A DNA stretch of 64,000 nt, from positions 17,881 through 81,880 of the forward strand of contig JAYRIM010000021.1 in NCBI GenBank assembly GCA_041906785.1, read 5' to 3'. A program made the translations under genes and the position numbers. The stretch comes from Candidatus Levyibacteriota bacterium (GTDB lineage Bacteria; Patescibacteriota; Microgenomatia; Levybacterales; UBA12049). This document shows positions 2,076 to 59,667 of the stretch, piece by piece; position 1 is the first letter of the stretch, and each line of letters starts with the position of its first letter. The notes beneath the pieces are model-generated. The model had not been told where the DNA came from. It did not search any database and saw only the letters and a list, made by a program, of their open reading frames with translations.

Positions 2076-2161
2076 GTTTGGGAGAGGATCGAAATCGGTC
2101 TATCGAAACGTCTTTTTTCTTCATCGGGGGTACTGCCCCCACCCGCCCCAAGGAGGCACCC

Positions 2162-2971: not shown

Positions 2972-3025
2972 CCGTGGTGGCATTCCCGGACTGTGATTGT
3001 CCAAAAACCGGGACCATGAGGTTCC

Positions 3026-3084: not shown

Positions 3085-3456
3085 GCCCTTGGGTCTGAGA
3101 AAGAAAGAAACACATGAAGGCGTTTCAAAAAACAAAAAGAACATGCTCCAAGCGACGGAAAACCCGTACTCTTGGAGGTGCCCAAATAAACTCATGCCAC
3201 TCTCTGATTCTGTATTCTTGAATTACCTATTATTGTCATGCTGAACTTGTTTCAGCATCTCAATTGTTAGTGGTGGGATCTTGAAACCTACCTATGTCAA
3301 GCAGGCGAGCTCCTTTGCAACGCTGAGTCCGCAAGTTCGGGATGACAAATATTCGAGGATAGAGAGTTGGAGATTGACTATTATATATTGTACTTATTTC
3401 TTGTTCAGTGATTGTAATCATTTTCTACTTAGTTTACTATATTTATATACTTAAAC

Positions 3457-7922: not shown

Positions 7923-8694
7923 TTGTACACATCCGGTGTGTACTAGATAGACACCTCAGGAAATGATATTGTAGAGTTATGCCCTATCGTCAAATGCCTT
8001 TTGTTTCTGGAGAAATATATCATGTTTATAATAGGAGTATAGCTCGTCTACCAATTTTTAATAGAAAAAATGATTATATTCGTATACTCGACTTATTAAT
8101 GTACTATCGTTATTTAGAACTTCCTCTTAGATTTTCACATTTTAATAGATTATCTGAAGAAAGAAAAAGGCAGTACGAAGAGATTTATTTTACAAATAAA
8201 AAAAAATCGATTGATATACTTGCTTATGCTATTATGCCGAACCATCTTCATTTTCTTTTAAAGCCATATACTTTTAGTGCGATTTCAAATTTTATGCGAA
8301 ATATACAAAACGGATATGCTAAATATTACAATATAAAAAATGATAGAACAGGATCTCTTTTTCAATTCATGTTTAAGGCAAAAAGAATAGAAACAGAAGA
8401 ACAACTTATTCACGTTTCAAGATATATACATTTGAATCCCGTGACTGCATTCATTATAAATATTGATCAACTAGGTGACTATATGTGGAACTCATTTAAA
8501 GACTACCTTGAAGAATCTTCATCACTTGTGACTACTCAACAGATTCTAAATTTATTCTCTTCAAAGGAACAATATAAGAATTTTGTATATGATCAAGTTG
8601 ATTACCAACGAGAATTAGATAAGATAAAGCATTTGCTATATGAATAATCCTTATGTGTCTATGTTGTACAAACCCGATGTGGGTTTTAGTGGGT
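7923..8694 (+). mobile_element. IS200/RAYT-like unit: HUH-Y1 transposase gene flanked by inverted copies of a ~40-nt hairpin (REP-like) element
   Basis: 5' flank 7923-7957 TTGTACACATCCGGTGTGTACTAGATAGACACCTC is the reverse-complement orientation of 3' flank 8653-8694 ATGTGTCTATGTTGTACAAACCCGATGTGGGTTTTAGTGGGT. Confidence 0.55.
7979..8647 (+). CDS. IS200-like / REP-associated tyrosine transposase (HUH-Y1 family)
   Basis: Motifs EIYHVYNRSIARLPIF (YHVxxR), AYAIMPNHLHFLL (HUH), SRYIHLNPV (catalytic Tyr); 222 aa. Confidence 0.7.
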   Translation: MPYRQMPFVSGEIYHVYNRSIARLPIFNRKNDYIRILDLLMYYRYLELPLRFSHFNRLSEERKRQYEEIYFTNKKKSIDILAYAIMPNHLHFLLKPYTFSAISNFMRNIQNGYAKYYNIKNDRTGSLFQFMFKAKRIETEEQLIHVSRYIHLNPVTAFIINIDQLGDYMWNSFKDYLEESSSLVTTQQILNLFSSKEQYKNFVYDQVDYQRELDKIKHLLYE

Positions 8695-8702
8695 ATTATG
8701 AT

Positions 8703-9572
8703 TTAGAGCGAGGAAACGTGGTAATTGTCAAACTCAACATCCATAAAATCAGTTCGGATGCCGGCGTGGCCTTCGTCGAGAATCGCTGGTCCACCAAACT
8801 TCGTACCATCATCTACACCTTCAGCAGCGAGTTGCCAATTTCCAGAATTATCTTTATCAATATATACAGAAATGTGAACAGTATTATCACCATTAGTCCG
8901 TATTTGTGATCGCAAGCCTATCCATGTACCAGAAGGTATAAGATTTGAATGGGAAGAACTATCATATGAGCCGTCGAGGATTTTTTTACTTGCAATAGTA
9001 TAGTACGATCCATTCAATTTCTTTTTTATAACAGCTAATCCGTCTACACGGATCCCTGCATAGTAAAGCGTATCACCATTTCGGTATCTATTAAAAAAAA
9101 GAACGCCGTTTGATTGATTAAAGTTCTCACTTGAGCTGGGGTTATAAGCATTTACTTTAAAATTGATTTGTTGTTGGACATTTTTCCATGTGCCTTTCGT
9201 AACTAAGCGGAAAATATTTTGAGGTTGGAATCCTTCGTTTGTATCTTTAGGATTCGTCTGTTTATAAATCTTCTGCCATAATGATCCTTCTGGAAGTTTT
9301 CCTTGGATGGTTTTTCCAATACCATTCTCTACATAAAAAATCCCTCCTGAGTTTAGCCACCAAAAACTATTTGGGCTAATTAATAAATTTGGTGATTCTT
9401 GGAGTATCTCAGACGTATCAAAAGAGAAGGATGTTTGAGATACTTCATGTAGAACAGATTTCGTTGGCTGTATAAAACTAGTGGGAATAATTTTTTTAAT
9501 ATCCTGAGAAAAAGGAATAAAGAGAATAACAGCAAGCGAAATAAAAATGAAAGGAATCTTTGGCCACATCAT
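8703..9572 (-). CDS. secreted beta-sandwich (concanavalin/LamG-like?) protein, last gene of exopolysaccharide operon
   Basis: Signal-anchor N-terminus, beta-rich; co-directional and tightly spaced (17 nt) after the deacetylase gene. Confidence 0.4.
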   Translation of the reverse strand: MMWPKIPFIFISLAVILFIPFSQDIKKIIPTSFIQPTKSVLHEVSQTSFSFDTSEILQESPNLLISPNSFWWLNSGGIFYVENGIGKTIQGKLPEGSLWQKIYKQTNPKDTNEGFQPQNIFRLVTKGTWKNVQQQINFKVNAYNPSSSENFNQSNGVLFFNRYRNGDTLYYAGIRVDGLAVIKKKLNGSYYTIASKKILDGSYDSSSHSNLIPSGTWIGLRSQIRTNGDNTVHISVYIDKDNSGNWQLAAEGVDDGTKFGGPAILDEGHAGIRTDFMDVEFDNYHVSSL

Positions 9573-12506: not shown

Positions 12507-13841
12507 TTATCTGCCTATACCTTTATAAGTAATTCCTGCTTTTTGAAAATCTTCTTTCGGAAGACAGTTTCGTCCGTCAACGATAACTTTTATACCAAGT
12601 CTCTTAAGTTTTGCAGGAGTTAAGTTAACAAACTCGGTATGTGCAGTAGCTATAAGGATAGCTTTCGTATTCTTTAATGCTGCGGATAGTGTTTCTTCGG
12701 TAGATTTATTTATAAGATATGGATCAAAAATAGCCACATCTGCACCACGTTCTTTTAATAATTTAATAATTTCATATGATGGACTTTCTCGATCATCATC
12801 GATATTTGCTTTATATGACAATCCTAAAACTGCAATTCTTGTTCCATTTATGGCTAGTTTATGTTCATTAAGTCCTTGTTCGAGTTGCTCAATAGTAAAA
12901 TGAGGCATTTTATTATTAATTCTTCTCGCTAAAGAAAGAAATTCATGGTAAAAACCATTTTTCTTCGCATATTCAATCAGGTAATATGGATCGACAGGAA
13001 TACAGTGGCCTCCAACACCGGCTCCTGGAAAGTGCGGCATAAAAGAGAAAGGTTTCGTTGCAGCGCCTTCGATAACATGTACGACGTCAATGCCTAAATG
13101 AGAAAAGGACATGGCAAGTTCGTTCACAAATGCAATATTTATATCTCGAAATGCATTTTCTACCACTTTTACCGCTTCTGCTTCCTTTAAGGAATGCATT
13201 TGTTTTACTTCGCCTTTAATGATCGATTTGTAAAAAGCAGTGGCTTTTTTTAATGAAATTTGGTTAAATGCTCCGACGACACGATTAATGTTTTCAACAT
13301 TCCATTTTGTATCTCCCGGGTTAATACGTTCAGGGCAATGTGCGAGATAAAAGTCCTTTCCAGCGATTAGGCCAGATTTTTCTTCTAAGATTGGCAGTAC
13401 AACATCATCAGATACACCAGGATTTACAGTGGATTCGAGGATAACTAATTGTCCTTTTTGTAGATATTTTGCAATATTCTCGGTTGCGGAAATTACAGGT
13501 TCTAAATCAGGAGTATAATCAAGATGAACTGGTGTGGGAACACAAATAATAATCGTTGATGCATTTTTTAGATCAGAATAGTCAGTAGAAGCAATAAGAG
13601 AAGATTTTCTGAGTAATTTCGCTAGTGTTTCATCATAGAATGGGACAACTTTATTATTAATCTGGGCTGCTTTTTTCGGATTTCGTACGACCCCCACAAC
13701 CTCGTACCCTTTTCTATTAGCAAGAAGGGCAAGTGGTAATCCAACATATCCTAAACCTATAATAGCCATTTTCTTTGTATTAAGCGTTTGCGTTGATGCC
13801 ATAAAAAAACCAGTTTTAATAAAACTGGACAGTTTTGGCAT
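12507..13841 (-). CDS. nucleotide-sugar dehydrogenase, UDP-N-acetyl-hexosamine 6-dehydrogenase type (WbpA/TviB/WecC-like)
   Basis: N-terminal Rossmann KKMAIIGLGYVGLPLA; catalytic GGHCIPVDPYYL matches the UDP-GlcNAc/ManNAc dehydrogenase signature GGHCIxVDPYY rather than UgdH GGSCFPKD. Confidence 0.7.
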   Translation of the reverse strand: MPKLSSFIKTGFFMASTQTLNTKKMAIIGLGYVGLPLALLANRKGYEVVGVVRNPKKAAQINNKVVPFYDETLAKLLRKSSLIASTDYSDLKNASTIIICVPTPVHLDYTPDLEPVISATENIAKYLQKGQLVILESTVNPGVSDDVVLPILEEKSGLIAGKDFYLAHCPERINPGDTKWNVENINRVVGAFNQISLKKATAFYKSIIKGEVKQMHSLKEAEAVKVVENAFRDINIAFVNELAMSFSHLGIDVVHVIEGAATKPFSFMPHFPGAGVGGHCIPVDPYYLIEYAKKNGFYHEFLSLARRINNKMPHFTIEQLEQGLNEHKLAINGTRIAVLGLSYKANIDDDRESPSYEIIKLLKERGADVAIFDPYLINKSTEETLSAALKNTKAILIATAHTEFVNLTPAKLKRLGIKVIVDGRNCLPKEDFQKAGITYKGIGR

Positions 13842-13913: not shown

Positions 13914-14183
13914 TTAAGTTTGGTCGAGAGGTGAATTTTCGAGGTCTGGGTCATTTACTGTGCTTGGCTTTTCAGGTTTTACCACATCGGATGCTGGAAT
14001 AGGGATAACTATTTCAGCCTGATTTGTAGGTTCGAAAACAGGCTCTCGGATAAACTGTAAATCCATGTTTCGTAAATCTGACTGAAGTATTCCACGGGAA
14101 GACCACCCAAGAATAAAAAATAAAGGGAGAATAAGAAGAATCATCCAGAAAGAGAGAGATTGTCTATCGTCAATTTGATACAT
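13914..14183 (-). CDS. small membrane protein, hypothetical
   Basis: 89-aa ORF with one TM segment upstream of EPS operon. Confidence 0.3.
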   Translation of the reverse strand: MYQIDDRQSLSFWMILLILPLFFILGWSSRGILQSDLRNMDLQFIREPVFEPTNQAEIVIPIPASDVVKPEKPSTVNDPDLENSPLDQT

Positions 14184-14296
14184 ATATTGATACCTGTAGT
14201 CTAACTTTAGAGACGAAAAGGTATAACAGATCTATTTATAATCTTCAGGCGTTAAGAATAAAAAAGAAGAGGGTAAGAAATAAGTTACAATTACTA

Positions 14297-14328
14297 GTTA
14301 TGAGTTATGAGTTATGAGTTATGAGTTA
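14297..14328. repeat. tandem heptamer repeat (GTTATGA) x4.5
   Basis: gttatgagttatgagttatgagttatgagtta read directly. Confidence 0.9.
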
Positions 14329-14730
14329 GGGGTGGGTAGAATCGTGCCGCAAGGGGAGGCATGGTATTTCAGCTCTAAGTGAGCTGGTCTTAGAGAGCTG
14401 GGCGCTCTCTTTAGACAACCATACCGCCCCTGCGGCTAAGAACCTTGTGAGTCACTACGTTGACCACCTTTCCCCGTAAGGGGAAAATACCTACAAGAGG
14501 TGGTAGTTCAGCGGAGCGCTGACAAGGGCTCCCTTACGGGAGCAAATTTTCAAATCTTGACCGTGGAACCGGTTATGTTTTCTCCCGAGGGAGAAGCCAA
14601 TTTCCGTTCCTAAAGAGGAACGAAAACATCCATCCCGAAAGATGGTGGCTGCCTCTTGCGAGGCAAAACCGGTTCGTCGTTCCCCAAACGATCAAGTATA
14701 GGGGGAGAATACCATGATCCTCCCGCCTGT
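14329..14730 (+). ncRNA. candidate large structured ncRNA (about 400 nt, GC-rich, no ORF) with long-range closing helix and numerous tetraloop hairpins; class not identified
   Basis: 5' GGGGAGGCATGGTAT (14351-14365) pairs with 3' ATACCATGATCCTCCC (14710-14725). Internal hairpins: CCCCgtaaGGGG, GGGCTCCCttacGGGAGC, CGTTCCTaaagAGGAACG, CATCccgaaaGATG, GCCTCttgcGAGGC. No ORF over 60 aa on either strand across 14184-15170. Confidence 0.35.
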
Positions 14731-14852
14731 ACCCGATCGTTTATTAATTTCAATGTAAAAGTTCACTAAAAGAAATCGCTTTCTTTCAAGAAGAATCCTT
14801 TTATATCATGTTTTGCATTCTTTGTCAAGACTATAGGGCCTATTTGGTTGTG

Positions 14853-14880
14853 GGTTATGAGTTGAGAGTTGTCTGTTATA
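14853..14880. repeat. degenerate heptamer-type repeat GGTTATGAGTTGAGAGTTGTCTGTTATA
   Basis: Same GTTATGA/GTTGTC word family as 14297, 24105, 25877. Confidence 0.6.
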
Positions 14881-14883
14881 AAC

Positions 14884-14958
14884 AAAGAGACAAAAGAGCC
14901 CAGAAGGAAGTAATTATCCTTTGGCTCCTCTGGCTCATTTGACTCATCTCTCTCTTTG
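14884..14958. repeat. composite palindromic intergenic repeat, copy 1 (degenerate)
   Basis: Words GAGACAAAAGAGCCCAGAAGG ... CCTTTGGCTCCTCTGGCTC shared with copies at 22352, 33161, 40699, 47231, 49151. Confidence 0.5.
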
Positions 14959-15228
14959 ATTATTGCTTATGGTGGTGATTGCTATACCTCTAAAATTGAA
15001 CTATAATTATTGATTGACTTAAGCTAAAAATTCATACGAATGAGTTGAAATTGTCCTATTTATACATACAAATTATTACGAACATACATTGACAATTACT
15101 TACTATGGAAACAATCCGCATAAAAGGTGCCCGAGAGCACCCCAGTATAACGTTTACCTTCTCCCGAGGTCTACGTCCTCGCGTCGAAGGAGCTCGTATA
15201 CGGGGCAAGCAACTTAAATATAATTAAT

Positions 15229-18135
15229 ATGGAAAAAATTATAATTCGTGGAGCTAGAGAACATAATCTTAAAAACGTTAATTTGGAAATTCCGAAAAAT
15301 AAACTAGTGGTTTTTACTGGTTTATCAGGAAGTGGAAAATCATCTCTCGCCTTTGACACGATTTATGCCGAAGGACAACGCCGGTATGTAGAGAGTTTAT
15401 CTTCATATGCTCGTCAGTTTTTAGGAACGATGAAAAAACCCGATGTGGACCTTATCGAAGGGTTATCTCCGGCAATTTCTATTGACCAGAAATCTACTTC
15501 ACATAATCCACGTTCGACAGTCGGGACAGTTACTGAAATTTATGATTATCTTCGTTTATTATTCGCCCGAGTAGGGCATCCTCATTGTCCAAAATGTGGA
15601 AGAGAAATAGCCCGACAGTCTAAAGAGCAGATTACAAATGCTATTGCGGATCTAACACAGCAGTATCCGCAACTTGGTAAAAAACCGCTACGCACATTAA
15701 TCATGGCACCACTTGTGAAAGATAGAAAAGGTGAATATACAGAGATGTTTACTAGTCTGCGGAAACGGGGATATTCAAAAGTCCGTATTGATGGGAGAGT
15801 ATATGGACTTGATGAAAAAATTGTACTGATTAAGACAAATAAACATAGTATTGATCTTATTATTGATAGCATTGTTATCAATAAAGAAACAGATCGGACT
15901 CGTTTAGCAACTGACGTAGAACAGGCACTGCAATTCGGTAATGGAGAAATGATCGTCGGCGTTATCCATGATGCTTCATTCGACATTCCTGATAAGCCTG
16001 AACAGATCGAAGACCATTTATATTCTGAAAAATTTGCATGTCCAGTAGATAATATTTCTATTTCCGAAGTTGAGCCACGTATTTTTTCTTTTAATACACC
16101 CCATGGAGCATGTCCTGAATGTTCTGGTCTTGGCCGTGTTTTAGATGTAGATAAGGATTTAGTTTTTAATAAAGATTTATCTATTAATGAAGGAGGAATC
16201 TTGCCTTTCTTCAATATGATGATGAATGATACATGGATGTCACGGACGTTTAAGACATTTTGTAAAGAAAATGGACTTCCTATGGATAAACGACTTGGAG
16301 CATTATCAGAAGAACAAATCAATTTATTGTTGTACGGAACAGGAGACCGACAATATTATGTAAAAGGAGAAAATAGATGGGGAATGTCTACAGCGATTCG
16401 TGAATCATTTAAAGGAATTTCTTATGAATTAAAACGCCGCTATTCAGAATCAGATTCAGAATATGTTAAAGCGCAGATCGAAAAGTTCATGCGATATGAA
16501 GTTTGCCATGTTTGTGAAGGTGCACGGTTAAAACCAGAAGCTCTTTCAGTTACGATAGAAAAAGAGTCTATTGTCGCAGTTTCAGAGATGTCTATCCGGG
16601 ATGCCTTAGCATTTATCGAATCACTACCGAGTAAAATGTCTGATAGAGAAAATGAAATAGGCCGCTTAATTCTCCGTGAAATTCGACAACGTCTCTCTTT
16701 CTTGGTAGATGTAGGACTCGATTATTTAACACTTGCAAGAAGTGCAGCAACTTTAGCAGGCGGAGAAGCACAACGTATTCGCTTGGCATCACAAATAGGG
16801 AGTGGTTTAACCGGTGTGCTGTATGTTCTCGATGAACCATCTATTGGTTTACACCAGCGTGATAATACGAAATTAATAGAAACGCTTAAAAAACTCCGTG
16901 GGTTAGGAAATACTGTACTTGTGGTCGAGCATGATGAAGATACTATGAAAGCAGCGGATTATATTTATGATTTCGGTCCTGGAGCTGGGGTACATGGAGG
17001 AAATATAGTCGCCAAGGGAACATATGAAGAACTTGGGAAAAATCCCGCATCTATCACTGGCGAGTATCTTTCTGGAAAGAAAAAAATACAGATCAGGAAA
17101 ACAGAAAAAGGTGTCGGAGTGGACATGGATGGAAAGGAAAGCTCAATTACTATTCTCGGAGCAACTGAACATAATTTAAAAAATATTGACGTAACTTTTC
17201 CGCTTCACAAACTAGTAGTTGTGACAGGCGTTTCTGGATCGGGTAAGTCAACATTAGTGAATGACATTTTTTATCATGCACTGATGCAAGCGAAAAATCC
17301 ATATCATCGTCAGAAACCAGGAGCACATAAAGCTATTGCAGGCCATGAGGAAATTAAGAATATTTTTCTTATAGACCAATCGCCGATTGGGAGAACTCCC
17401 CGAAGTAATCCTATTACGTATACTGGAGCATTTAACTATATTAGAGATTTGTTTGCGAGTACCAAGGAAGCGAAATTGCGTGGATATGGTCCCGGACGAT
17501 TTTCATTTAACGTTAAAGGTGGTCGATGTGAAGCATGTGAAGGTGAAGGGCAAATAAAAATCGAAATGCAGTTTCTACCGGATGTCTATGTTACATGTGA
17601 AGTTTGTGGCGGAAAACAATATAATAATGAAGCATTAGAAATATTGTTTAATAGTAAGAATATCGCAGATGTTCTTCAGATGACTGTAGCAGAAGCAACA
17701 GCGTTTTTTTCATTCGTTCCTGGTCTAGCTCATAAACTTCAAACACTGAATGATGTAGGTTTATCATATATTCGTCTCGGTCAACCCGCACCGACATTAT
17801 CTGGAGGAGAAGCCCAACGCGTGAAACTAGCTTCAGAGCTTTCAAAGAAAGGCAAAGGAGCTATTTATCTTCTCGATGAACCAACTACAGGTTTGCATTT
17901 CGCTGATTTAGAAAAATTACTACTGGTTTTCAGAAAGTTAGTTGATTTAGGAAATACAATTATCGTGATAGAACATAACTTGGATGTGATCAAAAATGCT
18001 GACTATATTATTGATTTAGGTCCAGAAGGTGGAGATAAAGGTGGAGAAATTGTCGCTCTAGGTACACCTGAAGAAGTCGCTAAGATTGACAGATCATACA
18101 CAGGACAATTCCTCAAGAAAGTCCTCAAATCCTGA
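15229..18135 (+). CDS. uvrA: excinuclease ABC subunit A
   Basis: 968 aa; N-terminal [13 protein letters not shown]...[23 protein letters not shown]; two ABC modules with Walker [11 protein letters not shown], signature LSGGEAQR twice; zinc-finger CxxC pairs. Confidence 0.95.
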
Positions 18136-18182
18136 TGTGTCTACGATGTACACACCCGATGTGGGTTTTAATGTGGGTTTTA
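18136..18182 (+). repeat. REP-like hairpin element (same family as RAYT flanks) immediately after uvrA stop
   Basis: ATGTGTCTACGATGTACACACCCGATGTGGGTTTTAATGTGGGTTTT, about 80% identical to 8653-8694. Confidence 0.65.
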
Positions 18183-18334
18183 TTTTTTTTACTTATTTCT
18201 ATTATAGGGAGAGGTGGTTGGGTTACCCCAATCTCACAAATGCTCAATAAAGCGCAAAATTGCTTCAAAAAGTTTTTATGGATTATATCCACCTCCCCCC
18301 GATGTTAAATAGGGGGGAACGCAACGCAATAAGT

Positions 18335-18995
18335 TTATCTGATAGGAACTACTTCAACTGAGCCACTGTTACCTACTTTGACCTGCCAACGCTGAGTCAT
18401 CGTAGGTCCACAGACGAACTTAACGACCAAGCGTACGTTAAACACACCAGGATCTACATACACATGAGTCGCAGTTGGCATGGAACTTGTTATCGGAGAA
18501 GAAGCACCTCCATCTGTCCATATTACATAGCTGCCAGTTATTTCCCCAATCGTAGGTCTCCAGCACGTATCCACTCAATATCTCCGTGAAACACGACTGA
18601 AAAACCGTTCGGATTGATACATGTTTAAAGAAAATGAATGATGGGAAAAAGATAAATTTGTACAGTTAATTGAATATTTTACAGGTAAAATGAGCGTGAA
18701 GTATGAAGAAGAAATGATGGGAGAACGTATTTGAAAATCTATTGTTTCGCTAAACAAGCAACAAAAGATTTTGAAATATTTTCTCCGACATTACGCCACT
18801 ATTGAGTGCGTACTCCAGCACGACTTGTGACGGGATACCCGAATACTTCAACTGGGAACGAAGTTTCTCGTTTCCGGTACATGGCTGTTGATTGCAGGCT
18901 ACCAGAAATAACCCTACTATCAACAAGGTTGCTGAAATTACTAGTCTGTGCACTGGGAAGTCCTTTCTAAGCTTTTGCGTTTGCGTTCCCCTCAA
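18335..18995 (-). pseudogene. possible disrupted gene: lipoprotein-like N-terminus (LLIVGLFLVAC lipobox) followed by two further ORFs in shifted frames
   Basis: Three consecutive minus-strand ORFs (18750..18995, 18575..18757, 18335..18574) in different frames; composition more GC-rich than neighbours. Confidence 0.25.
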
Positions 18996-19198
18996 TGCTT
19001 AATAATTCCATTAGATGAATAAGATTCTTCGCTCTACCCCTGTCTCTCCCGACTTACGTCGGGATCGCAGGCGCGAACTCCTTCGCTTTGCTCAGTCCGT
19101 TTGCTCAGAATGACATTCGGAAATTTACAAAGCAATGAGGGAACACAAATTGTGAAAGAGCGATATTTAATCAAGATAATACTGCCTTTCTATGCAGC

Positions 19199-21085
19199 TT
19201 GCAAGTTTTTCACTATAATGAATATATGAATTTATTTTTTAAGTTCTCTACTAAGTTGTCGAAATATATTTTATTTTTGAGTTTTATTTTTTATTTCTTC
19301 TCTTTTATTTTTTATATACCCAACGTTTACGCTGAAGACAACTTTATAACTGATTATCATATTATTTACACAGTTGCCGAGAATGGTATGACAAATGTCG
19401 TGATGGATGTAACGCTTACAAATGCCGCTGATGATTATTCATATGCTTCTTCATATTCTATTCAGCTTGGTTTTGAGAATATCTCGAATGTTAAAGCATC
19501 TGATCTAGGTGGATTCATAGATCCGAAGGTTGAGAAAAATGAAGATGGAAATAATATATCGATAAAGTTCAACCAAAAAGCTGTAGGTATTGGCAGTAAA
19601 CAATTTTTTTCAATATCCTTTTTAACGCCTGATATTGCGAAGAAACAAGGTGAAATTTGGGAAATCAATATTCCAGGCATAGCAAATCAGGATACCTTCG
19701 ATTCATTTGATGTCGATCTTCAGGTGCCTAACAATTTCGGAAAACCTGCGTATATTAAACCCAGACAGGAAAGCGACACATTACATTTTACAAAAGAACA
19801 GTTAAGCACGTCAGGTATTTCAGTCGCATTCGGTGAGAAACAAACATATGAATTTTCACTTATTTATCATCTGAATAATAAAAACCTTTTCCCTATTCGA
19901 ACAGAAATTGCCTTGCCTCCCAATACAAACTATCAAGAAATAAATATTGATTCTATGACACCAGAACCAAAAAAAGTTGAAAAAGATACAGATGGAAATT
20001 GGCTGGCAGAATACGAATTGCTTCCTGGGGAAAGTAAAGATGTATGGGTTACAGGAAAGGCACAAATATTTCTCCAACCGAAAAAAGAAATTTTAAGCGA
20101 AGAGGAATTAGCGCACTATTTAAAAACAGATCAATTCTGGGAAATAGAAAATGAAAAAATAAAATCAAAAGCTCAATCTCTGCGTACACCTGAAGCTATT
20201 TACTCATATGTAGTAGATACTTTAACATATGATTTCTCCCGCGTAACAAGTAATAAAAATAGATTAGGAGCACAAAAAGTCATATCTGATCCAAAATCTG
20301 CTGTTTGTCTAGAATTTACAGATTTATTTATCGCTTTAGCTCGTGCTGCCGGTATTCCTGCAAGAGAAGTAGATGGGTATGCCTATACAGAAAATCAGCG
20401 AGATAGGCCATTATCACTCGTACAGGATATTCTTCATGCTTGGCCAGAATATTATGACCGTGAGAAAGAGATGTGGATTATGGTCGACCCGACCTGGGGA
20501 AATACTACTGGAGGAGTAGATTACTTCCATGTTTTAGATTTCGATCATTTAGCTTTCGTAAAGCGTGGTGTTAGCAGTACATATCCTATTCCTGCGGGAG
20601 GATATAAAAATACAGGTGATGAAAATAAAAAAGATATTGCAATTTCTTTTTCAGAGAAAGATATCTCCCAGAGTTCTACCATAACTCTCGAACCATATAT
20701 CGCATCTTCTTATACAGCAGGGTTTCCGATAGATGGGACAATAACAGTTATTAATAAAGGTCCAGCTGTAAGTACAAGCACTGCCGTATCTATTTTCTCG
20801 AGTACTCTCTTACCGGGAAATCAGAAAAGTTATGTAAAAGATATTCTGCCATTTGGAAGAAAAACTGTACGATTTCAATTCCAAAAATTACCATTTTTGA
20901 CAAATGCTACACACACAATTACAATCAGCGATGGAAAAAATGAATTCAGTAAAACTATTGAGGTCATACCATTCTTAGTTAAAGACTGGAAGCTGAAAGG
21001 AGGAATTATTGGTGCAATACTCGCGTTCATCATATTTATCTTTGCCATCAAAACCCGGCGTTTACCAATTTCTCGACGCAAGTAA
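19199..21085 (+). CDS. transglutaminase-like cysteine protease domain membrane protein
   Basis: N-terminal TM; SAVCLEFTDLFIALARAAGIPAR (Cys), LHAWPEYY (His), MVDPTWG (Asp) triad of the transglutaminase-like superfamily; C-terminal TM. Confidence 0.6.
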   Translation: MQVFHYNEYMNLFFKFSTKLSKYILFLSFIFYFFSFIFYIPNVYAEDNFITDYHIIYTVAENGMTNVVMDVTLTNAADDYSYASSYSIQLGFENISNVKASDLGGFIDPKVEKNEDGNNISIKFNQKAVGIGSKQFFSISFLTPDIAKKQGEIWEINIPGIANQDTFDSFDVDLQVPNNFGKPAYIKPRQESDTLHFTKEQLSTSGISVAFGEKQTYEFSLIYHLNNKNLFPIRTEIALPPNTNYQEINIDSMTPEPKKVEKDTDGNWLAEYELLPGESKDVWVTGKAQIFLQPKKEILSEEELAHYLKTDQFWEIENEKIKSKAQSLRTPEAIYSYVVDTLTYDFSRVTSNKNRLGAQKVISDPKSAVCLEFTDLFIALARAAGIPAREVDGYAYTENQRDRPLSLVQDILHAWPEYYDREKEMWIMVDPTWGNTTGGVDYFHVLDFDHLAFVKRGVSSTYPIPAGGYKNTGDENKKDIAISFSEKDISQSSTITLEPYIASSYTAGFPIDGTITVINKGPAVSTSTAVSIFSSTLLPGNQKSYVKDILPFGRKTVRFQFQKLPFLTNATHTITISDGKNEFSKTIEVIPFLVKDWKLKGGIIGAILAFIIFIFAIKTRRLPISRRK

Positions 21086-22346
21086 CACAGTTATTTATGT
21101 CGGTAAAGCAATTGATCTTAAATCTCGAGTCTCTTCTTACTTCACAAGCTCTTCACAACTAGGAGAGAAAACTCGGTTGTTAGTTTCTAATATAGAAAAA
21201 ATTCGTATTACACTTGTCGAGTCAGAACTCGAAGCATTATTACTTGAAGCGTATTATATTAAAAAACATAATCCTAAATATAATATTCGCTTAACAGATA
21301 ATAAAGCATATATTCTTGTCCGTATAACCATGAAAGACATATACCCGAAAGTGCTGCTGGCGAGAAAAATGGAATATCCAGAAGATATCTATTTCGGTCC
21401 TTTTCCAAATTCAGGCGCAGTGAAATTAGTATTAAAAACAATCCGGAAAGTTTTCCCTTTTCAATCTGTTGAAAATCATGCAAAACGAATTTGTCTTTAC
21501 AATCATTTAGGGTTATGTCCGTGTCCTCCAGTAAACGATTCCCTTGAGTTACGAAAACAATATAGAAGCAATATACGTAATATTATTCGGATTTTTGAAG
21601 GACAGTCACATAAAATACTGTCTGAACTCGAAAGAGAGCGAGAAAAACTAAGCGAGGAAGAACGCTTCGAGGAAGCTGGATTTATGCAGAGAAGAATTAA
21701 CGCTTTAAGCTATATTACACAACCGTTTCATAAACCTCATGAATATGAATTTAATCCAAATTTACGATCTGATTTGCGTGAAGAGGAACTTATGAATTTA
21801 CAACAAATTTTACGAGAGAACGGATGTCTTGTGACTTCTCTGGAGCGTATTGAATGCTATGATATTTCCCATATCCAAGGTACAAATACAACAGCTTCTA
21901 TGGCTGTCTTTATTAACGGAGAAAAAGAGTCATCACAGTATCGAAAGTTTAAAATAAGATTGGAAAAGACACCAGACGACTTTGCGAGTATGAAAGAGGT
22001 TCTCCAAAGAAGAATTCGGCATAGCGAATGGTCAATTCCTGGTTTGATAATTGTCGATGGTGGAAAAGGACAAGTCTCTGCAGCATTTGAAGTTTTACGA
22101 CAGATGAAATTAGATCTTCCTTTAATTGGTTTGGCAAAAAGGGAAGAAACCATTGTAATACCTCAATTAACAATGCCAAATGACAAATATCAAATGTCAA
22201 ATAAAATTGGGAATTTGAAATTCACAGAGGTTTCTTTACCTAAAGATGCGAAAGCGCTTCACCTGATTCAAAGAATAAGAGATGAAGCTCACCGGTTCGC
22301 AATAACATACCATAGAAAACTAAGAAGTAAAGGAGTAACTAAATAA
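21009..22346 (+). CDS. uvrC: excinuclease ABC subunit C, short form lacking C-terminal (HhH)2 domain; TTG/GTG start overlapping upstream gene by about 75 nt
   Basis: GIY-YIG: PGVYQFLDASNTVIYVGKAIDLKSRVSSYF; UVR-like RFEEAGFMQRRINAL; RNase-H-like endonuclease domain YDISHIQG...IIVDGGKGQ; no in-frame ATG upstream of GIY-YIG. Confidence 0.8.
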   Translation: MVQYSRSSYLSLPSKPGVYQFLDASNTVIYVGKAIDLKSRVSSYFTSSSQLGEKTRLLVSNIEKIRITLVESELEALLLEAYYIKKHNPKYNIRLTDNKAYILVRITMKDIYPKVLLARKMEYPEDIYFGPFPNSGAVKLVLKTIRKVFPFQSVENHAKRICLYNHLGLCPCPPVNDSLELRKQYRSNIRNIIRIFEGQSHKILSELEREREKLSEEERFEEAGFMQRRINALSYITQPFHKPHEYEFNPNLRSDLREEELMNLQQILRENGCLVTSLERIECYDISHIQGTNTTASMAVFINGEKESSQYRKFKIRLEKTPDDFASMKEVLQRRIRHSEWSIPGLIIVDGGKGQVSAAFEVLRQMKLDLPLIGLAKREETIVIPQLTMPNDKYQMSNKIGNLKFTEVSLPKDAKALHLIQRIRDEAHRFAITYHRKLRSKGVTK

Positions 22347-22351
22347 AATGG

Positions 22352-22436
22352 ACTAAAGGAGACAAGAGAGCCAAAGGTTCCAAACGGATAAAGTTACCTT
22401 TGTCTCATCTGGCTCTTCGGTCTCTTATGGAACCTG
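22352..22436. repeat. composite palindromic intergenic repeat, copy 2
   Basis: GGAGACAAGAGAGCCAAAGGTTCC...ACCTTTGTCTCATCTGGCTCTTCGGTCTC between convergent uvrC and SBP genes. Confidence 0.6.
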
Positions 22437-22441
22437 GAAGC

Positions 22442-23803
22442 TTACTTTCGAATCAGTTCATATTCTTGGGGGAAATAGAGAAATGAGGCTGGTGCTTCAT
22501 CAAGGAGATATTTTTGAAAGTCTGTATATATTTTTATTCTTTCCTCATCATCTACTGTTTTTCGGCCATCTTCCAATAGCTTATCTATGCGCAAATTTCG
22601 CAACTTTGTAATATTGTTTGCCTGTGCTGAATGCCATAAAGTATATTGATCTGGATCTTTTGGAACATTAAATTCACCCAAGAATACTTGGAATTGGTCC
22701 GGTATCGTATCTGCGTCATTTATTGTGACTATAAAACCAAGCTTCTCCCATGCTTTCGAAATAGTTTCTGCTGTGGTTTTATATTTTTCTAATGAAGTTA
22801 TAGTAATTTTTGGTTTAGCACTGGCACTAGCTTGTTCCAGAGCAGAAGAAACCAGGAGACTTGCATGGTTAAGATCTTGTCGTCTCGCTGCTGTATCTGG
22901 GTTACTGTATTTAGATTTTGGTGGGTAAGGATTGTATGTACGAATTCCTTCTCCAAACGTATCAGGTAGTGCATAGGTAAGACCATTACGAATTTTTTTA
23001 TCAGAAAGCAAAGGATCTTGAGTATTATAAAAAAGTGTAACTAATGTACCGTAGTTTACCTGTTTTTTTATAGAAATATTTTGAAATTTGCTAAAATCTA
23101 CTGTTTGTAATGTAACTGTGTTCACGCGTGCAATTTTAGTAATTTCCCCAAGTGCCATAGCAGTTTTTAATGCATCTATAGTCGGATAAAAGATATATGT
23201 TTCATTCTGTAAGGAATCTTTTCGTGAAACTAATTGAATAGTCTTTAGGAATTCTCCGTTCAGCTCAAGTTTATGTATTTTATAGTCCCCAACACCTATA
23301 AGATTTTTATAAAAAATAGGCCGTGAAACAGTTACAAGGAAGGGCGCATACGGTTCTTTTAAGTTAAATTCGATAGTATAGGGGCTCGGTTTCTTAATAG
23401 TAACTTTTGAGAAAGAATAGCTCACTTTATCTGAAGTAAATGGTTCACCGTCAGAAAACGTTATGTCTTTTTTTAAATAGAAAGTATATCTTTTACCTTT
23501 ATTTGAAATTTTCCAAGAAGATGCTAAATCTGGTGAAATAGTGCCACCCTGTGAGACTTTTGTTAAACCTTTTGCGATTTTATTCACTATGAATGAAGGC
23601 ATGTTTTCCGTTCGGTAAGCACCTGAAATGCCTATAATCGTCTTTCTGTGAGTTGGAATAAGTTGAAGAAGAAGTGGATAAAAATTAACTAATAAAAGAA
23701 AAATTCCTAACCCTATTAAGAAAAAAAGGAAAAATTGCTTTCCCCAGCGTTTAATATATGCCTTAATCAACCAAAACAAGTATCGTCGTCGGATTACAGC
23801 CAT
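22442..23803 (-). CDS. extracellular solute-binding protein family 5 (OppA/DppA-like), membrane-anchored
   Basis: N-terminal TM then SBP_bac_5-like core (ISPDLASSWKISNKGKRYTFYLKKDITFSDGEPFTSDKV). Confidence 0.5.
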   Translation of the reverse strand: MAVIRRRYLFWLIKAYIKRWGKQFFLFFLIGLGIFLLLVNFYPLLLQLIPTHRKTIIGISGAYRTENMPSFIVNKIAKGLTKVSQGGTISPDLASSWKISNKGKRYTFYLKKDITFSDGEPFTSDKVSYSFSKVTIKKPSPYTIEFNLKEPYAPFLVTVSRPIFYKNLIGVGDYKIHKLELNGEFLKTIQLVSRKDSLQNETYIFYPTIDALKTAMALGEITKIARVNTVTLQTVDFSKFQNISIKKQVNYGTLVTLFYNTQDPLLSDKKIRNGLTYALPDTFGEGIRTYNPYPPKSKYSNPDTAARRQDLNHASLLVSSALEQASASAKPKITITSLEKYKTTAETISKAWEKLGFIVTINDADTIPDQFQVFLGEFNVPKDPDQYTLWHSAQANNITKLRNLRIDKLLEDGRKTVDDEERIKIYTDFQKYLLDEAPASFLYFPQEYELIRK

Positions 23804-23814
23804 AATTAAAAATC

Positions 23815-23880
23815 GTATAACGTGTAACTTGTAACGTATTGCAAAAGATTGTACGTTACACGTTATGCGTTACACGCTCC
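23815..23880. repeat. ACGT-rich inverted repeat CGTATAACGTGTAAC...GTTACACGTTATGCG
   Basis: Arms reverse-complementary; between secG stop and SBP gene start. Confidence 0.5.
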
Positions 23881-23887
23881 ATGGGAA

Positions 23888-24100
23888 TCATTGGGGTATT
23901 ATTAGTAGCGCAATTGAAAACACAGCCAGAAGAGCAGCAGAAAGAACAGTGAGGTAAATGAGAAGCTTTTCAATATTTCTTTTACTGCGGTACATTTCTC
24001 CCCCTCCACCGAAGACTGGAGATAATCCTCCGCCCTGTGATTGGAGTAATACACAGACTATTAAAAGTATGGAAACGAGTATTTGAGCAATATATAACAT
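23888..24100 (-). CDS. secG: preprotein translocase subunit SecG
   Basis: 70 aa, two TM, LLQSQGGGLSPVFGGGGEMY glycine-rich SecG signature. Confidence 0.6.
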   Translation of the reverse strand: MLYIAQILVSILLIVCVLLQSQGGGLSPVFGGGGEMYRSKRNIEKLLIYLTVLSAALLAVFSIALLIIPQ

Positions 24101-24104
24101 GATA

Positions 24105-24140
24105 GTTATGAGTTGTCAGTTGTCAGTTGTCTGTCAGTCA
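24105..24140. repeat. heptamer repeat array GTTATGA-GTTGTCA-GTTGTCA-GTTGTCT-GTCAGTCA directly upstream of secG start
   Basis: Read directly; same word family as 14297 and 25877. Confidence 0.8.
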
Positions 24141-24192
24141 TGCGCAAAGGATAAAAAATATTTACTGATCACTAAATACTGAAAGCTGAGTG

Positions 24193-25173
24193 CTATTTAT
24201 TATAGAGATTCATGATTGCAGATGCAAGTTTATTTGACTCATGATAAATCGGAAAGTTTTCATCTACAAGATCTGAAAAAACGAGATGGTATTCCTGCAG
24301 CATGTCTTTATTTTTTATGTGTTCGACATATGTATATGATGTATGCTCATCCTTTAATGGTATTGACTTATTTCCATTAACGAGAACATCATCAAATGGA
24401 AATATGCCAATGTGTTTTTTAATGGCTTCAATAAAATCATATACTGTGTATCCTTCAGTTTCTTGGGGTTTGTTCGCGACGTTTACTATATATGTCTTTC
24501 TGGCTTTTGACTTTAAAAATGCTTCTTTGATCAATGGTACGATCAATACAGGAAGTGTTGTAGTATATAAATCTCCCGGACCTACAATAATGATATCTGC
24601 TGTATGAATCGATTCAATCGCTTTTTGTGATACTGAGGGATTTTCTGGAGTAATAAAGATTTTATCTATTTGTGGTTTACCTTCGTATTTTCCTAAATCT
24701 ATATTCTCTTCACTGTGAACTGTCACACCGTCTTTCGTGACTGCTGAAAGTGTGACAACTTCATTCGTGGCTGGATAAATTTTCCCGCTAGCATGAACTA
24801 AGCGTTGGATAAGTTCTACTGCATCATCGTAATCACCAGTAATCTCTTTTGCTGCAATAAGCATCAAGTTTCCTAATTTCTGTCCGCCAATTTCACTATC
24901 TGCACCATATCTATCTCCTGGAAAGCGGTACGTGAGAAGTTGCGCGATATTAGGATGGTCATCTCCACTTAAAGCTGCAATGCACGAAACCAAATCGCCA
25001 GGAGGTAGTGTATTAAATAATCTCCGTAAGCGTCCACCTGATCCGCCATCATCTGTAGTGGTCGCTACAACTGTAATATTATCAGCGATTTGTCGCAGTC
25101 CACGGATAAGTGTGACAGTTCCAAGCCCTGATCCAAGGCAAACAATACGCTTATTTTTCAAATCCTTTTCCAT
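24193..25173 (-). CDS. YvcK/CofD-family (UPF0052, gluconeogenesis-factor-like) protein
   Basis: RIVCLGSGLGTVTLIRGLRQ N-terminal glycine loop and ATTTDDGGSGGRLRR motif typical of the YvcK/CofD family. Confidence 0.6.
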   Translation of the reverse strand: MEKDLKNKRIVCLGSGLGTVTLIRGLRQIADNITVVATTTDDGGSGGRLRRLFNTLPPGDLVSCIAALSGDDHPNIAQLLTYRFPGDRYGADSEIGGQKLGNLMLIAAKEITGDYDDAVELIQRLVHASGKIYPATNEVVTLSAVTKDGVTVHSEENIDLGKYEGKPQIDKIFITPENPSVSQKAIESIHTADIIIVGPGDLYTTTLPVLIVPLIKEAFLKSKARKTYIVNVANKPQETEGYTVYDFIEAIKKHIGIFPFDDVLVNGNKSIPLKDEHTSYTYVEHIKNKDMLQEYHLVFSDLVDENFPIYHESNKLASAIMNLYNK

Positions 25174-25297
25174 AGATTCTATTTGTTGACTTTAGTTCCT
25201 GTATTTTACTTTAAAGTATCGAAAGTATCAGATTATTACTAATTAGAAAATCCAAAGCCTTCGATACCTTTGGTACTTTTCATACTTTTGATACCTC

Positions 25298-25702
25298 TTA
25301 TTTTATGAGCCAGCGTATTGTACCTGAAATCAGAGATAAAGCAAGAGCAGCGAGAATAAATGCAAATAGTGTATTAACCTTAATCGGATCAATAGAAAAC
25401 CCTGCCAATGACGCTCCAGGAAATTTATACTCCATTATGCTTACATTCGGTACGAAAACTGTTAGAAGATAGAGAATTAAAGCGTTCGTTATGACTGAAA
25501 ATAGCCCCATCGTAATGACATTAAATGGAAAGGTCAGTACTGAAAAAATAGGTTTCACAAAAACAAAAAGTAAAGAAAGTGCTACTCCACCAAGAATAAG
25601 CGTAAATGCTCCTCCGACGATTTTTACACCGCCTACAAAATGAGGTAAAAGAAAAAGGGATAAAGCATAGATAGCTGTATTCCTGAGCAGTGGTTTAAGC
25701 AT
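25298..25702 (-). CDS. DUF360/holin-like 4-TM membrane protein
   Basis: 134 aa, four TM helices, pattern typical of YvlD/phage-holin-4_2 family. Confidence 0.45.
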   Translation of the reverse strand: MLKPLLRNTAIYALSLFLLPHFVGGVKIVGGAFTLILGGVALSLLFVFVKPIFSVLTFPFNVITMGLFSVITNALILYLLTVFVPNVSIMEYKFPGASLAGFSIDPIKVNTLFAFILAALALSLISGTIRWLIK

Positions 25703-25876
25703 GAGCGTTTTACCATTATACTGCAGAGAAATAGAAGAAACAATCTTTTGAGTTTCAAAGAGTCAAGGTTGCAAAGTTACTTGAAAAAATAAAACAGCTC
25801 ATCTATAATATAGGCCTATAGTCGATTTTCGGCTATTTTTATTTGCACATTGAAACAGTGACGGAATCGGGAATAT

Positions 25877-25961
25877 GGTTATCAGTTATGAGTGGTCAGT
25901 TGTCAGTTTTTGAATAAATTATATCTCACAACCCATAACTCATAACTGACAATTGATAACC
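25877..25961. repeat. 85-bp inverted repeat built from heptamer words (GGTTATCAGTTATGAGTGGTCAGTTGTCAG ... CATAACTCATAACTGACAATTGATAACC)
   Basis: Arms reverse-complementary with few mismatches; sits immediately 5' of the second GC-rich islet. Confidence 0.8.
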
Positions 25962-26109
25962 ATTTTTCCGGTTTCGTCCGAAGGAAAGCCTCAGAAAGGA
26001 GGGAAAGGCTTCAGGGACATGGTGGCGCAGCCACCCCGGACATACTCGCTTTTATAGGAGTATGCCTCAAATTCAGTAGACCGCCAGGAAGCGGTCTGGG
26101 AGGGGAAAG

Positions 26110-26532
26110 ATGTCTCGCTTGCGTCTTGAATTCGTTGGTATTCTCGCGGTGCTGCTTGCATTCGCAGCAGGTTCCGCATATGCCAGCGACTCGACAACAG
26201 AATCGGCGACTACGAAAGTCGCCAACCAGTACAGCGTAGATTGTACTGCGTACCCTGTACCGGGATCGAATCCGCCGCAGCACAGTCGGACGCCGAATGG
26301 GCAGACGGGTGTGACTATCCGAGACACAGGTACAATCAATGACCCCAACGGGGTCGTGTACCAGTGTTGGTCAGGAAATTGGAACCCAGTCACCCGGTGG
26401 AAGCAGCCCGAGGTGCAACCACAGCCACAACCCGCTCCGGGCGATCGTTGGTGGTGGACGCCATGCACGCGCTGCCAATGGGTAGCTGCGCCTACGCAGA
26501 AGGCTACCCGGACCACATACCGTCGGCGCTAA
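26110..26532 (+). CDS. GC-rich small secreted Cys/Trp-rich protein (140 aa), hypothetical; could alternatively be non-coding structured RNA
   Basis: GGAGGGG SD before ATG; signal peptide MSRLRLEFVGILAVLLAFAAGSAYA; 6 Cys, W-rich; GC3 bias only moderate and a 147-aa ORF exists on the opposite strand, so coding status uncertain. Confidence 0.35.
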   Translation: MSRLRLEFVGILAVLLAFAAGSAYASDSTTESATTKVANQYSVDCTAYPVPGSNPPQHSRTPNGQTGVTIRDTGTINDPNGVVYQCWSGNWNPVTRWKQPEVQPQPQPAPGDRWWWTPCTRCQWVAAPTQKATRTTYRRR

Positions 26533-26555
26533 CTTCAGGCTTGTTCTGTCAGCGG

Positions 26556-26580
26556 CTTCATGGGGTCGGGCGATCGGCTC
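26556..26580 (+). terminator. hairpin GGGGTCGggcgatcggctCGACCCC followed by TCATGATTTCT
   Basis: 7-bp GC stem with T-rich tail 24 nt after stop of 26110..26532. Confidence 0.4.
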
Positions 26581-26649
26581 GACCCCTCATGATTTCTCGC
26601 TTTCCTCCAAAAACTTGCATTATTTTCTTAATTGGATTTTTCCGATTTT

Positions 26650-26712
26650 TGACGATTTGTAGGTTTCCCTTCCGGCGCAATATAGTATAAGAACAAAAAG
26701 ATTTTATGCTCT
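26650..26712. other. 63-nt near-perfect hairpin CCTTCCGGCGCaatatagtataagaac...ctcttatactaGCGCCGGAAGG
   Basis: 11-bp outer stem plus 11-bp inner stem read directly. Confidence 0.6.
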
Positions 26713-26770
26713 TATACTAGCGCCGGAAGGCATGTGCATAACCAAGTACCGAATAGTACTTGGTAAAGAG

Positions 26771-26812
26771 AAACCCACCTATGAGTATACTCAAACGGTG
26801 GGTTTTTTATGG
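26771..26812 (+). terminator. rho-independent-type terminator AAACCCACC...GGTGGGTTTTTTAT (possibly bidirectional, abuts stop of minus-strand 26807 gene)
   Basis: 9-bp stem followed by T6. Confidence 0.5.
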
Positions 26813-27430
26813 TTTTCTAATATAAGGGTTTGACCCTTTTTGCATGATACTTGGAAAAGAGGATTTAGTCTGTTGTTTATTTTGCTGGTTTTGATTTGTA
26901 TTAGATTTCTGAATTTGACCAGTAGTATTTTTTAAAGGGGATTTATTTTTATTTGATTCATAAAGCTGAAAATAGTCTGGATTCTCTGTAGGACTATATT
27001 GGCGGGCTTCATCAATATCATGGGATCCTGTGTACTTACTAATAATCCATTTTAATGGAATTGAAAATACTATTCCAATAATAACTGCAGCAGTCATCAA
27101 TAATATATTAAAAAATATCACATAACCGATTGTTAGGGTTAGTGTCGGTGTTTGGAATGATATACTTTCTGCAGTCAGACAGGCAGCTTGTAAACCATTT
27201 AAAGAACAATGAAAATCGATTAATGGGTAAAGAGCGGTGAACAGAACCCCAATAGAAAAGATTGGAATAAAAACGATAGAAAGAATAAAAATGGTTTTTT
27301 TGCTTAATTTCAAAGGAAGAATTAAACCAACGACTAATCCGCTCACAATAAGTAACATTGCAGGGTTAGCAAGTAATCGGATATATTCTACAAAAAAATT
27401 GTTCAGGTTCATAGTTGTATGATACAACAA
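26807..27430 (-). CDS. membrane protein with Q/N/K-rich C-terminal tail, hypothetical
   Basis: 4 TM segments then low-complexity QKSNTNQNQQNKQQTK. Confidence 0.35.
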   Translation of the reverse strand: MLYHTTMNLNNFFVEYIRLLANPAMLLIVSGLVVGLILPLKLSKKTIFILSIVFIPIFSIGVLFTALYPLIDFHCSLNGLQAACLTAESISFQTPTLTLTIGYVIFFNILLMTAAVIIGIVFSIPLKWIISKYTGSHDIDEARQYSPTENPDYFQLYESNKNKSPLKNTTGQIQKSNTNQNQQNKQQTKSSFPSIMQKGSNPYIRKP

Positions 27431-38755: not shown

Positions 38756-38971
38756 TAATTCAGTTGCTCGCCTCGCTATAGCTTTGGCGAAGCGAGTCGG
38801 TTTTCTGTTGTCAGTTATTAGTTTTAACATCACAAACAGAAGCTAATGGCTATTCTAACAGTAATTATTACCTACTGCAATAAATGTGTGACCAGTGCTA
38901 TTGCAGACTTTATCCTTCAGTGATAGACTAACACATGGCTTTTTTAATCAGAAAAAAGTTATACTACTACT

Positions 38972-59528: not shown

Positions 59529-59667
59529 AAAAGTAAATCTAGATTCAAGATTTAAGATTCACGATTTAAGAACGTAAGAATATTGTAGCAGAACAATTTC
59601 TTTTGCACTCGTATAAAACTAACATTCTATATTTTTAAAGCAAAAAATGCTACAGTAGTGTTAGAAC

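Follow-up and report, generated by a model that had tools for sequence, protein, structure and literature searches.

The heptamer arrays scattered through a 64,000-nt stretch of a Candidatus Levyibacteriota genome (Patescibacteriota; GenBank assembly GCA_041906785.1, contig JAYRIM010000021.1, positions 17,881 to 81,880; hereafter the window) are, judged by their sequence, an instance of the already described TAACTGA-type heptanucleotide repeats hosted by a member of the candidate phyla radiation (CPR). On the plus strand the units read GTTATGA, GTTGTCA and GTTATCA, the reverse complements of TAACTCA, CAACTGA and TAACTGA, so that reading the minus strand brings them together as a TAACTNA family. 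The account that we consider probable is that these repeats are born by slippage in a Patescibacteria genome poor in Shine-Dalgarno (SD) sequences and are kept in sense orientation as SD-independent leaders, with the palindromic copies serving as hairpins, and that they are not signals for the GC-rich islets of the same region; the functional part of this account, leaders and hairpins alike, is what we infer. The TAACTGA family is already known, and what is new here is its occurrence in a CPR bacterium.

All four arrays that a preliminary description of this DNA had placed in the window are present, as called by Tandem Repeats Finder (TRF) and as read in the sequence (Table 1). In the cofD-secG spacer, the last unit in the TAACTNA register ends 1 nt before the ATG of secG, a start codon whose position is confirmed by alignment with two orthologues, and the sequence leading into it (...CAACTCATAACTATC-ATG) contains no GGAG-like motif and no SD sequence between array and ATG. 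The plus strand of this array reads GTTATGA GTTGTCA GTTGTCA GTTGTCT GTCAGTC (24105-24140; TRF, (AGTTGTC) x3 at 24111-24131), and in the GTTATGA register it is parted by 4 nt (GATA) from CAT, the minus-strand secG start codon; it had been described as GTTATGA followed by three copies of GTTGTCA, of which the placement beside the secG start holds, whereas the units are two copies of GTTGTCA plus a variant. The perfect array, called by TRF as (AGTTATG) x4.7 at 14296-14328 with 100% matches and read in the sequence as GTTATGA x4.5 at 14297-14328, lies immediately 3' of a minus-strand non-coding RNA (ncRNA) and 113 nt upstream of a small minus-strand open reading frame (ORF) starting at 14183. Its minus-strand RNA (14285-14335) has a minimum free energy of 0 kcal/mol and is thus unstructured, and direct reading of (TAACTCA)3 finds a TAA in each of the three frames. 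Upstream of the promoter of the same ncRNA, 19 nt from its -35 hexamer, starts a degenerate array (plus strand GTTGTGG GTTATGA GTTGAGA GTTGTCT GTTAT), which spans positions of about -54 to -87 relative to the inferred start of transcription. A further, probable array precedes the minus-strand tRNA-Arg gene (38682-38755) by 45 nt; it is the weakest of them, matching at 18/21 in two registers that overlap.

These arrays exceed what the composition of the window would produce. Scanning for at least 17/21 matches to (GTTRTSA)x3, with 20 first-order Markov randomisations of the window as control, we found 20 positions against 0-4 (mean ~0.5) per randomisation, whereas isolated heptamers are about as frequent as composition predicts; the heptamer arrays reach TRF scores of 66 and 42. 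Together with the recurrence of the family across phyla with an orientation bias, this bears out the earlier view that the arrays are not random simple sequence. All TAACTNA-type arrays in the window sit between ORFs or RNA genes, and, with local minus-strand transcription as the reference, all four direct arrays run forward (TAACTNA sense), secG and tRNA-Arg being, like the ncRNA, on the minus strand. At most ~16 of the 64 ORFs of the window carry an SD-like motif.

As a separate observation on translation starts, a TATAAT-like box ends 6-10 nt before the ATG at many of them (e.g. 6840, 9572, 25702, 47229, 61838) and most genes have no SD motif, a pattern that suggests that leaderless or very short-leader mRNAs are frequent in this CPR genome. 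A promoter role for the arrays themselves was considered and rejected: a CAACTGA tandem does yield a -35-like CTGACA, and the secG array contains CTGACA-16-TATCAT, but this -10 element overlaps the start codon, and promoter-like matches in the region stand at the level of shuffled sequence (9 vs 8.1).

The closest described counterpart is the set of TAACTGA direct repeats in the Guaymas 'Maribeggiatoa' (BOGUAY) genome (MacGregor 2015, Front Microbiol 6:1397; PMC4679880), which comprises 169 sets of 2-6 copies, most of them intergenic and forward to a start codon, with the largest class ending 1 nt upstream of it and about 10% accompanied by an SD sequence. The same paper describes the forward RNA as lacking structure and bearing stop codons in every frame, notes that ORFs tolerate the repeats in reverse, and gives their occurrence as sporadic (Beggiatoaceae, Cyanobacteria, a few Bacteroidetes), with close strains differing by 7-nt indels; function is there hypothesised only, translational regulation and binding by S1/Csp/CsrA-like proteins being proposed, and rearrangement for long arrays. 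The Patescibacteria repeats share with these the membership in the same heptamer family in 2-6 copies, sometimes split by related heptamers, the intergenic and forward placement, one array ending 1 nt before a start without SD, the all-frame stops and unstructured RNA, the sporadic distribution with absence from the same sites in close relatives, and occasional inverted repeats and in-ORF reverse copies. They differ in their host, which belongs to a phylum not reported in that paper, in their dominant units, TAACTCA and CAACTGA, each one mismatch away from TAACTGA, in a larger share of palindromic loci, and in that a start codon directly follows only one of the four direct arrays. Among the matches listed in a scan of other genomes, all four unit variants form arrays in other phyla, also mixed with one another, so that the family extends beyond the one word TAACTGA.

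That scan covered one genome per GTDB species for (GTTRTSA)x3 and returned at least 120 loci, the matches listed comprising 48 in Cyanobacteriota, 34 in Bacteroidota, 11 in Planctomycetota, 9 in Acidobacteriota, 4 in Beggiatoaceae, 3 in Chloroflexota and singletons. Where the start of an ATG-led ORF of at least 80 codons followed within 50 nt downstream, the array was forward in 36 cases and reverse in 5 (of 132 arrays listed; binomial P 8e-7), and arrangements closely resembling that at secG recur, for example (TGACAAC)n T ATG and (TCATAAC)n TTT ATG. No Patescibacteria are among the matches listed, and 766 kb of CofD-homologue loci from metagenomes contained no array, which together point to a trait of this genome and of one relative (L002, below) rather than of CPR bacteria at large.

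Beside the direct arrays, heptamer units are found in palindromes. An 85-bp inverted repeat had been described at 25877-25961; a heptamer repeat is indeed there, at 25878-25960 and imperfect, but the palindrome really extends further on both sides (Table 1), with 49-nt arms that are 73% complementary. Its left arm (25878-25908) reads GTTATCA GTTATGA GTGGTCA GTTGTCA, the right arm (25919-25960) is an inverted copy, and each arm has the TAACTNA sense toward the gene that it faces. The outer stem reaches into non-heptamer flanks that are inverted copies of unique flanking sequence, which is more readily explained by local inverted duplication than by the insertion of a defined element. When folded, this palindrome forms a long hairpin of -28.5 to -31.4 kcal/mol, with z between -3.9 and -5.3. 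The second, downstream of secG, is built of different units, CGTATAA CGTGTAA CTTGTAA on the left and GTTACAC GTTATGC GTTACAC on the right, folds at -26.8 kcal/mol (z -4.4) and is followed by UUUUU on the minus strand; a third lies just outside the window, on Logan contig L124 (5703-5774). Overall, the three palindromes span 63-119 nt each within ~75 kb of genome and have folding energies between -23 and -31 kcal/mol (z -3.9 to -5.3), two of them then running into U runs; they are alike neither in unit sequence nor in length.

Table 1. Repeat arrays, palindromes, islets and ncRNA features; coordinates are those of the window unless a relative is named.
Feature	Position	Strand	Sequence or context
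Perfect direct array	14294..14328	-	minus strand reads (TAACTCA)x4 + TAACTAG
Degenerate direct array	14847..14880	-	minus strand reads ATAACAGA CAACTCT CAACTCA TAACCCA CAACC
Direct array, cofD-secG spacer	24102..24140	-	minus strand reads TGAC TGACAGA CAACTGA CAACTGA CAACTCA TAACTAT C ATG(secG)
Probable degenerate array	38800..38827	-	plus GTTTTCT GTTGTCA GTTATTA GTTTTAA; minus TAACTGA CAACAGA AAACCGA
Heptamer palindrome 1	25860..25978	.	between divergent holin-like gene (start 25702, minus) and GC-rich islet 2
Heptamer palindrome 2	23814..23876 (63 nt)	.	between secG stop (23888) and solute-binding-protein gene start (23803)
(AATGTCA) x4.4	22172..22202	+	in frame inside uvrC
Heptamer array, other unit	59536..59571	-	minus TAAATCG TGAATCT TAAATCT TGAATCT; ends 12 nt upstream of start codon 59528
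GC-rich islet 1	1853-3238		58% GC; ORF 2162-2971
GC-rich islet 2	25961..26700	+	54% GC; orphan ORF 26110-26532
ncRNA promoter	14800..14828	-	TTGACA 14828-14823, 17-nt spacer, extended -10 TGaTATAAA 14808-14800
ncRNA copies in relatives	L002 19461-19960; L003 20060-20540

We read the ancestral state of the spacers from two syntenic relatives at ~72% protein identity (L002, the locus of GCA_034680565.1, and L003), together with a third relative available as a gene table only. L002 and L003 have no arrays at the orthologous spacers, from which we take the arrays of the window to be recent and lineage-specific. The cofD-secG spacer, 92 nt with its heptamer array here, measures 14 nt in L003 and is ~110 nt of a different, GC-rich palindromic repeat in L002; the orthologous holin spacer of L002 holds a 9-mer array instead. 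Within genes, the uvrC of L002 (12885-14438) contains an in-frame heptamer palindrome of ~135 nt (14007-14140) that adds 53 residues relative to the window and L003, and the (AATGTCA) array in uvrC of the window coincides with a short stretch where three UvrC orthologues vary in length. As a general trait, this lineage readily acquires short tandem repeats in its intergenic DNA.

Two of the earlier claims on the setting of the arrays are not borne out as worded. The perfect array had been thought to precede the ncRNA. The structured RNA (~465 nt, from ~14793 down to ~14329) is transcribed from the minus strand, divergently from uvrA, from a sigma-70-type promoter that is conserved, together with the 5' domain (GGCGGGAG...TCCCCC...TTGGGG), in three genomes (the window, L002 and L003); this puts the perfect array on the 3' side of the RNA and the degenerate one upstream of its promoter. 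L002 and L003 share this promoter, but their sequence at the position of the degenerate array is unrelated. Rfam searches at gathering thresholds across the entire window, and at permissive ones on 14200-14900, 1600-3400 and 25800-26850, returned only tRNAs and chance matches to hairpins; the ncRNA is without an Rfam match at the permissive thresholds too.

The arrays had further been held to accompany GC-rich or structured islets. The supposed islet at 14329 is the conserved ncRNA gene, which the relatives carry without arrays. Spacers that contain islets make up 34% of the intergenic DNA, so that finding three of the six array loci of the window within them is unremarkable (binomial P ~0.34). 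Arrays also occur at loci free of islets (cofD-secG, the spacer between secG and the solute-binding-protein gene, upstream of tRNA-Arg, and on L124), and islet 1, the largest of them, contains none, the best match there (17/21) being at chance level. Only islet 2 abuts a heptamer palindrome, its left edge falling within the right flank of that palindrome; it is absent from three syntenic relatives and, on this comparison, is a lineage-specific insertion. The three GC-rich elements show no similarity to one another beyond the heptamers, which are also all that islet and array regions have in common. That heptamers and islets seem linked arises because both occupy the few long spacers, and a single adjacency cannot establish a role in integration. 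The ORFs of islets 1 and 2 each have a signal-peptide-like N-terminus and a strong AGGAGG-type site, and, compared with 5.8 billion protein clusters, matched only themselves; Pfam gave no match.

On the account that we favour, arrays would arise and change length through replication slippage, palindromes would arise through inverted duplication, and spacers would be colonised independently in each lineage. Sense arrays would then persist as unstructured, SD-independent ribosome-loading leaders that would also stop read-through from the upstream gene, with copy number tuning expression, possibly through a single-strand RNA-binding protein, and the palindromic forms would act as intergenic hairpins that are terminator-like or transcript-stabilising. 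Several results weigh against such a role. Orientation agreement of four out of four is weak when taken alone (P ~0.06); only the secG array is near a start codon, the others lying 45-113 nt from the next gene or upstream of a promoter; and the dominant units here, TAACTCA and CAACTGA, rarely or never repeat in BOGUAY (PMC4679880). Exact TAACTGA (GTTATCA) is found in the window only as a lone unit within arrays of mixed composition, at 25878 and 25954, the arrays being built of TAACTCA (x4.5) and CAACTGA (x2-3). The arrays are also common in viral contigs of IMG/VR. Among the matches listed there (loci L127-L246), they are mostly in GTTATCA sense, opposite to the cellular genomes sampled; they lie 11-50 nt upstream of an AGGAG site and start codon, several per contig in the manner of intergenic punctuation. 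This opposite orientation makes a single universal role unlikely and points to one that depends on context. A simpler reading, that the arrays are neutral slippage products in which seven is simply the favoured slippage length, arrays collect in spacers because they would be deleterious elsewhere, and orientation bias reflects only what is tolerated (e.g. avoidance of hairpins or of spurious starts in leaders), seems to us unlikely, though it is the strongest competitor. It accommodates the absence of arrays at orthologous sites in relatives, the different repeats that the same spacer holds in different genomes, the unrelated 7-, 8- and 9-nt arrays of L002 and the other heptamer units of the window. 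It also has support in Mrazek et al. (2007), as cited in PMC4679880, where heptamers are given as the commonest long simple-sequence repeat and polymerase slippage is suggested; the long simple sequence repeats (5-11 nt) of that work resemble the present arrays as tandem heptamers beyond chance, mostly intergenic, sporadic and presumed to arise by slippage, in keeping with tandem arrays that by Markov shuffles and TRF are longer here than composition predicts, but the class is a statistical category and implies no mechanism. What neutrality explains less readily is that one narrow family of sequences turns up at six or seven loci here as well as across many phyla, that BOGUAY strongly prefers TAACTGA over one-mismatch variants (PMC4679880), that arrays show a strong bias to positions directly before start codons, and that essential genes such as secG tolerate an array where the ribosome-binding site would be.

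Other explanations assign the repeats a role in DNA or in mobility. The preliminary description had proposed iterated regulator sites or recombination/integration signals that mark or capture GC-rich islets, which we regard as very improbable, although islet 2 is lineage-specific with its left edge in the flank of a heptamer palindrome, the 14847-14880 array lies just upstream of a promoter, and long heptamer arrays stand beside a probably transferred ORF in Gramella, where a role in rearrangement has been speculated upon (PMC4679880). Against it stand the lack of enrichment in islet spacers once length is corrected for, the four non-islet loci and the array-free islet 1, the ancestral status of the ncRNA 'islet' and the mutual unrelatedness of the islets, and the absence of any integrase or transposase among the genes called on L001, L124 and L125. 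The palindrome beside islet 2 does recall an integron attC site, being an imperfect palindrome within the range of 60-140 nt, with GTT.../...AAC heptamer cores and an orphan cassette-like ORF next to it; its core order is however reversed (GTTATCA ... TGATAAC, i.e. GTTAT... then ...ATAAC, vs RYYYAAC ... GTTRRRY), its units misfit GTTRRRY and there is no cassette array, and the attC reading was rejected for the reversed cores and the missing integrase on those contigs. That the palindromes are small non-autonomous mobile elements, comparable to miniature inverted-repeat transposable elements or to Rickettsia palindromic elements, inserted in spacers and sometimes in frame, with the direct arrays as their remnants, is in our judgement the least likely of the explanations considered. 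Three heptamer palindromes in ~75 kb, the in-frame copy in L002 uvrC and positions that vary between relatives would agree with mobility, yet units and lengths differ, common termini and target-site duplications are lacking, the 25860-25978 palindrome includes inverted unique flank as expected of local inverted duplication, and no transposase was found nearby. Finally, a bolder reading, in which the arrays would be a cis-element of many phyla and phages, read by a conserved single-strand-binding factor or by the SD-independent ribosome and spreading horizontally, perhaps on phages, into SD-independent lineages including CPR, while the palindrome here would also capture GC-rich cassettes such as islet 2, is one that we hold to be improbable.

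Other repeat systems offer partial analogies. Rickettsia palindromic elements and the hairpins of repetitive extragenic palindromes and bacterial interspersed mosaic elements (REP/BIME) are short spacer palindromes that fold as RNA hairpins, and those of Rickettsia can sit in frame within genes. The Rickettsia elements share this in-frame siting with the L002 uvrC insertion but no sequence, the palindromes here being heptamer arrays with no single consensus. The short tandemly repeated repetitive (STRR) heptamers of cyanobacteria, associated with Mazel et al. 1990, are likewise tandem arrays beyond chance length, mostly intergenic, sporadic among lineages and presumed to stem from slippage, but reportedly have the consensus units CCCCAGT, TTGGTCA and CAACAGT, which differ from the units here. 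In Nostoc PCC 7120, heptamers lie upstream of recF and recO, where their deletion altered reporter regulation by a mechanism left unresolved in that work, and contiguous heptamers 30-100 nt from the start codons or -10 boxes of many genes were proposed to be regulatory (bioRxiv 10.1101/2022.06.06.494920); their units, TTTTGAA and GACYAAT, are unlike those described here.

If the leader role is true, Cyanobacteria, Bacteroidota, giant sulfur bacteria and an ultra-small CPR bacterium would have in common a simple, tunable, SD-independent translation-start signal, which would bear on start-codon choice in SD-poor bacteria. The main value of the present analysis is negative, in that the association of heptamers with islets gives no ground for proposing an integration system without more cases. 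In practice, such arrays can mislead annotation, as with the in-frame insertion in L002 uvrC, and they break short-read assemblies. Parts of the window are covered by three Logan contigs of run SRR26835457: L001, a second assembly from the same run, aligns at 100% identity to 26315-14299, and L124 (from ~1673 leftwards) and L126 (~1648-3261) were placed through gene coordinates, their extents being inferred. L001 stops inside the perfect array at 14299, two bases in, as expected where a 33-nt perfect tandem repeat breaks k-mer assembly.

The window encodes UvrA, UvrC, SecG, a CofD/YvcK-like protein whose best named matches are Patescibacteria and Levybacteria, and a small holin-family membrane protein, in a genome of 36% GC. 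An exact-sequence look-up of SecG returned no record, a search for related loci across GTDB genomes with the single CofD protein found nothing, and, with regard to copy-number differences such as a phase-variable contingency locus would show among strains, a 24-nt secG word found no near-identical strain in Joint Genome Institute (JGI) metagenomes.

Some minor observations concern the islets and the repeats of this lineage. A separate 1.6-kb Logan contig carries islet 1, on either side of which stands one copy of a 13-nt inverted repeat (AGAGTGGCATGAG near 1777, CTCATGCCACTCT near 3190). A near-perfect 67-nt hairpin at 26666-26732 (CCCTTCCGGCGC...GCGCCGGAAGG) marks the right end of islet 2, which, with the heptamer palindrome on its left, is thus bracketed by two long hairpins of unrelated sequence. 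Arrays of other heptamer units (TRAATCT, ATTAGAT) occupy short spacers just upstream of minus-strand starts, at 59536-59571 and 58829-58859. In L002, perfect arrays fill whole spacers, namely (ATGGTTAC)x14 at 8655-8767, (AAATGGC)x8.6 at 12816-12875 and a 9-mer x4.4 at 9483-9522, and its UvrC has a second in-frame insertion of 36 residues rich in R, D, Q and K. A GC-richer palindromic repeat type, GTCATNCTGAACTTGNTTCAGNATCTC, recurs at 3228-3262 of the window and at 20340-20440 and 11040-11095 of L002; one copy of this type fills the L002 cofD-secG spacer, and the window copy, at ~3261, coincides with an inferred Logan contig end.

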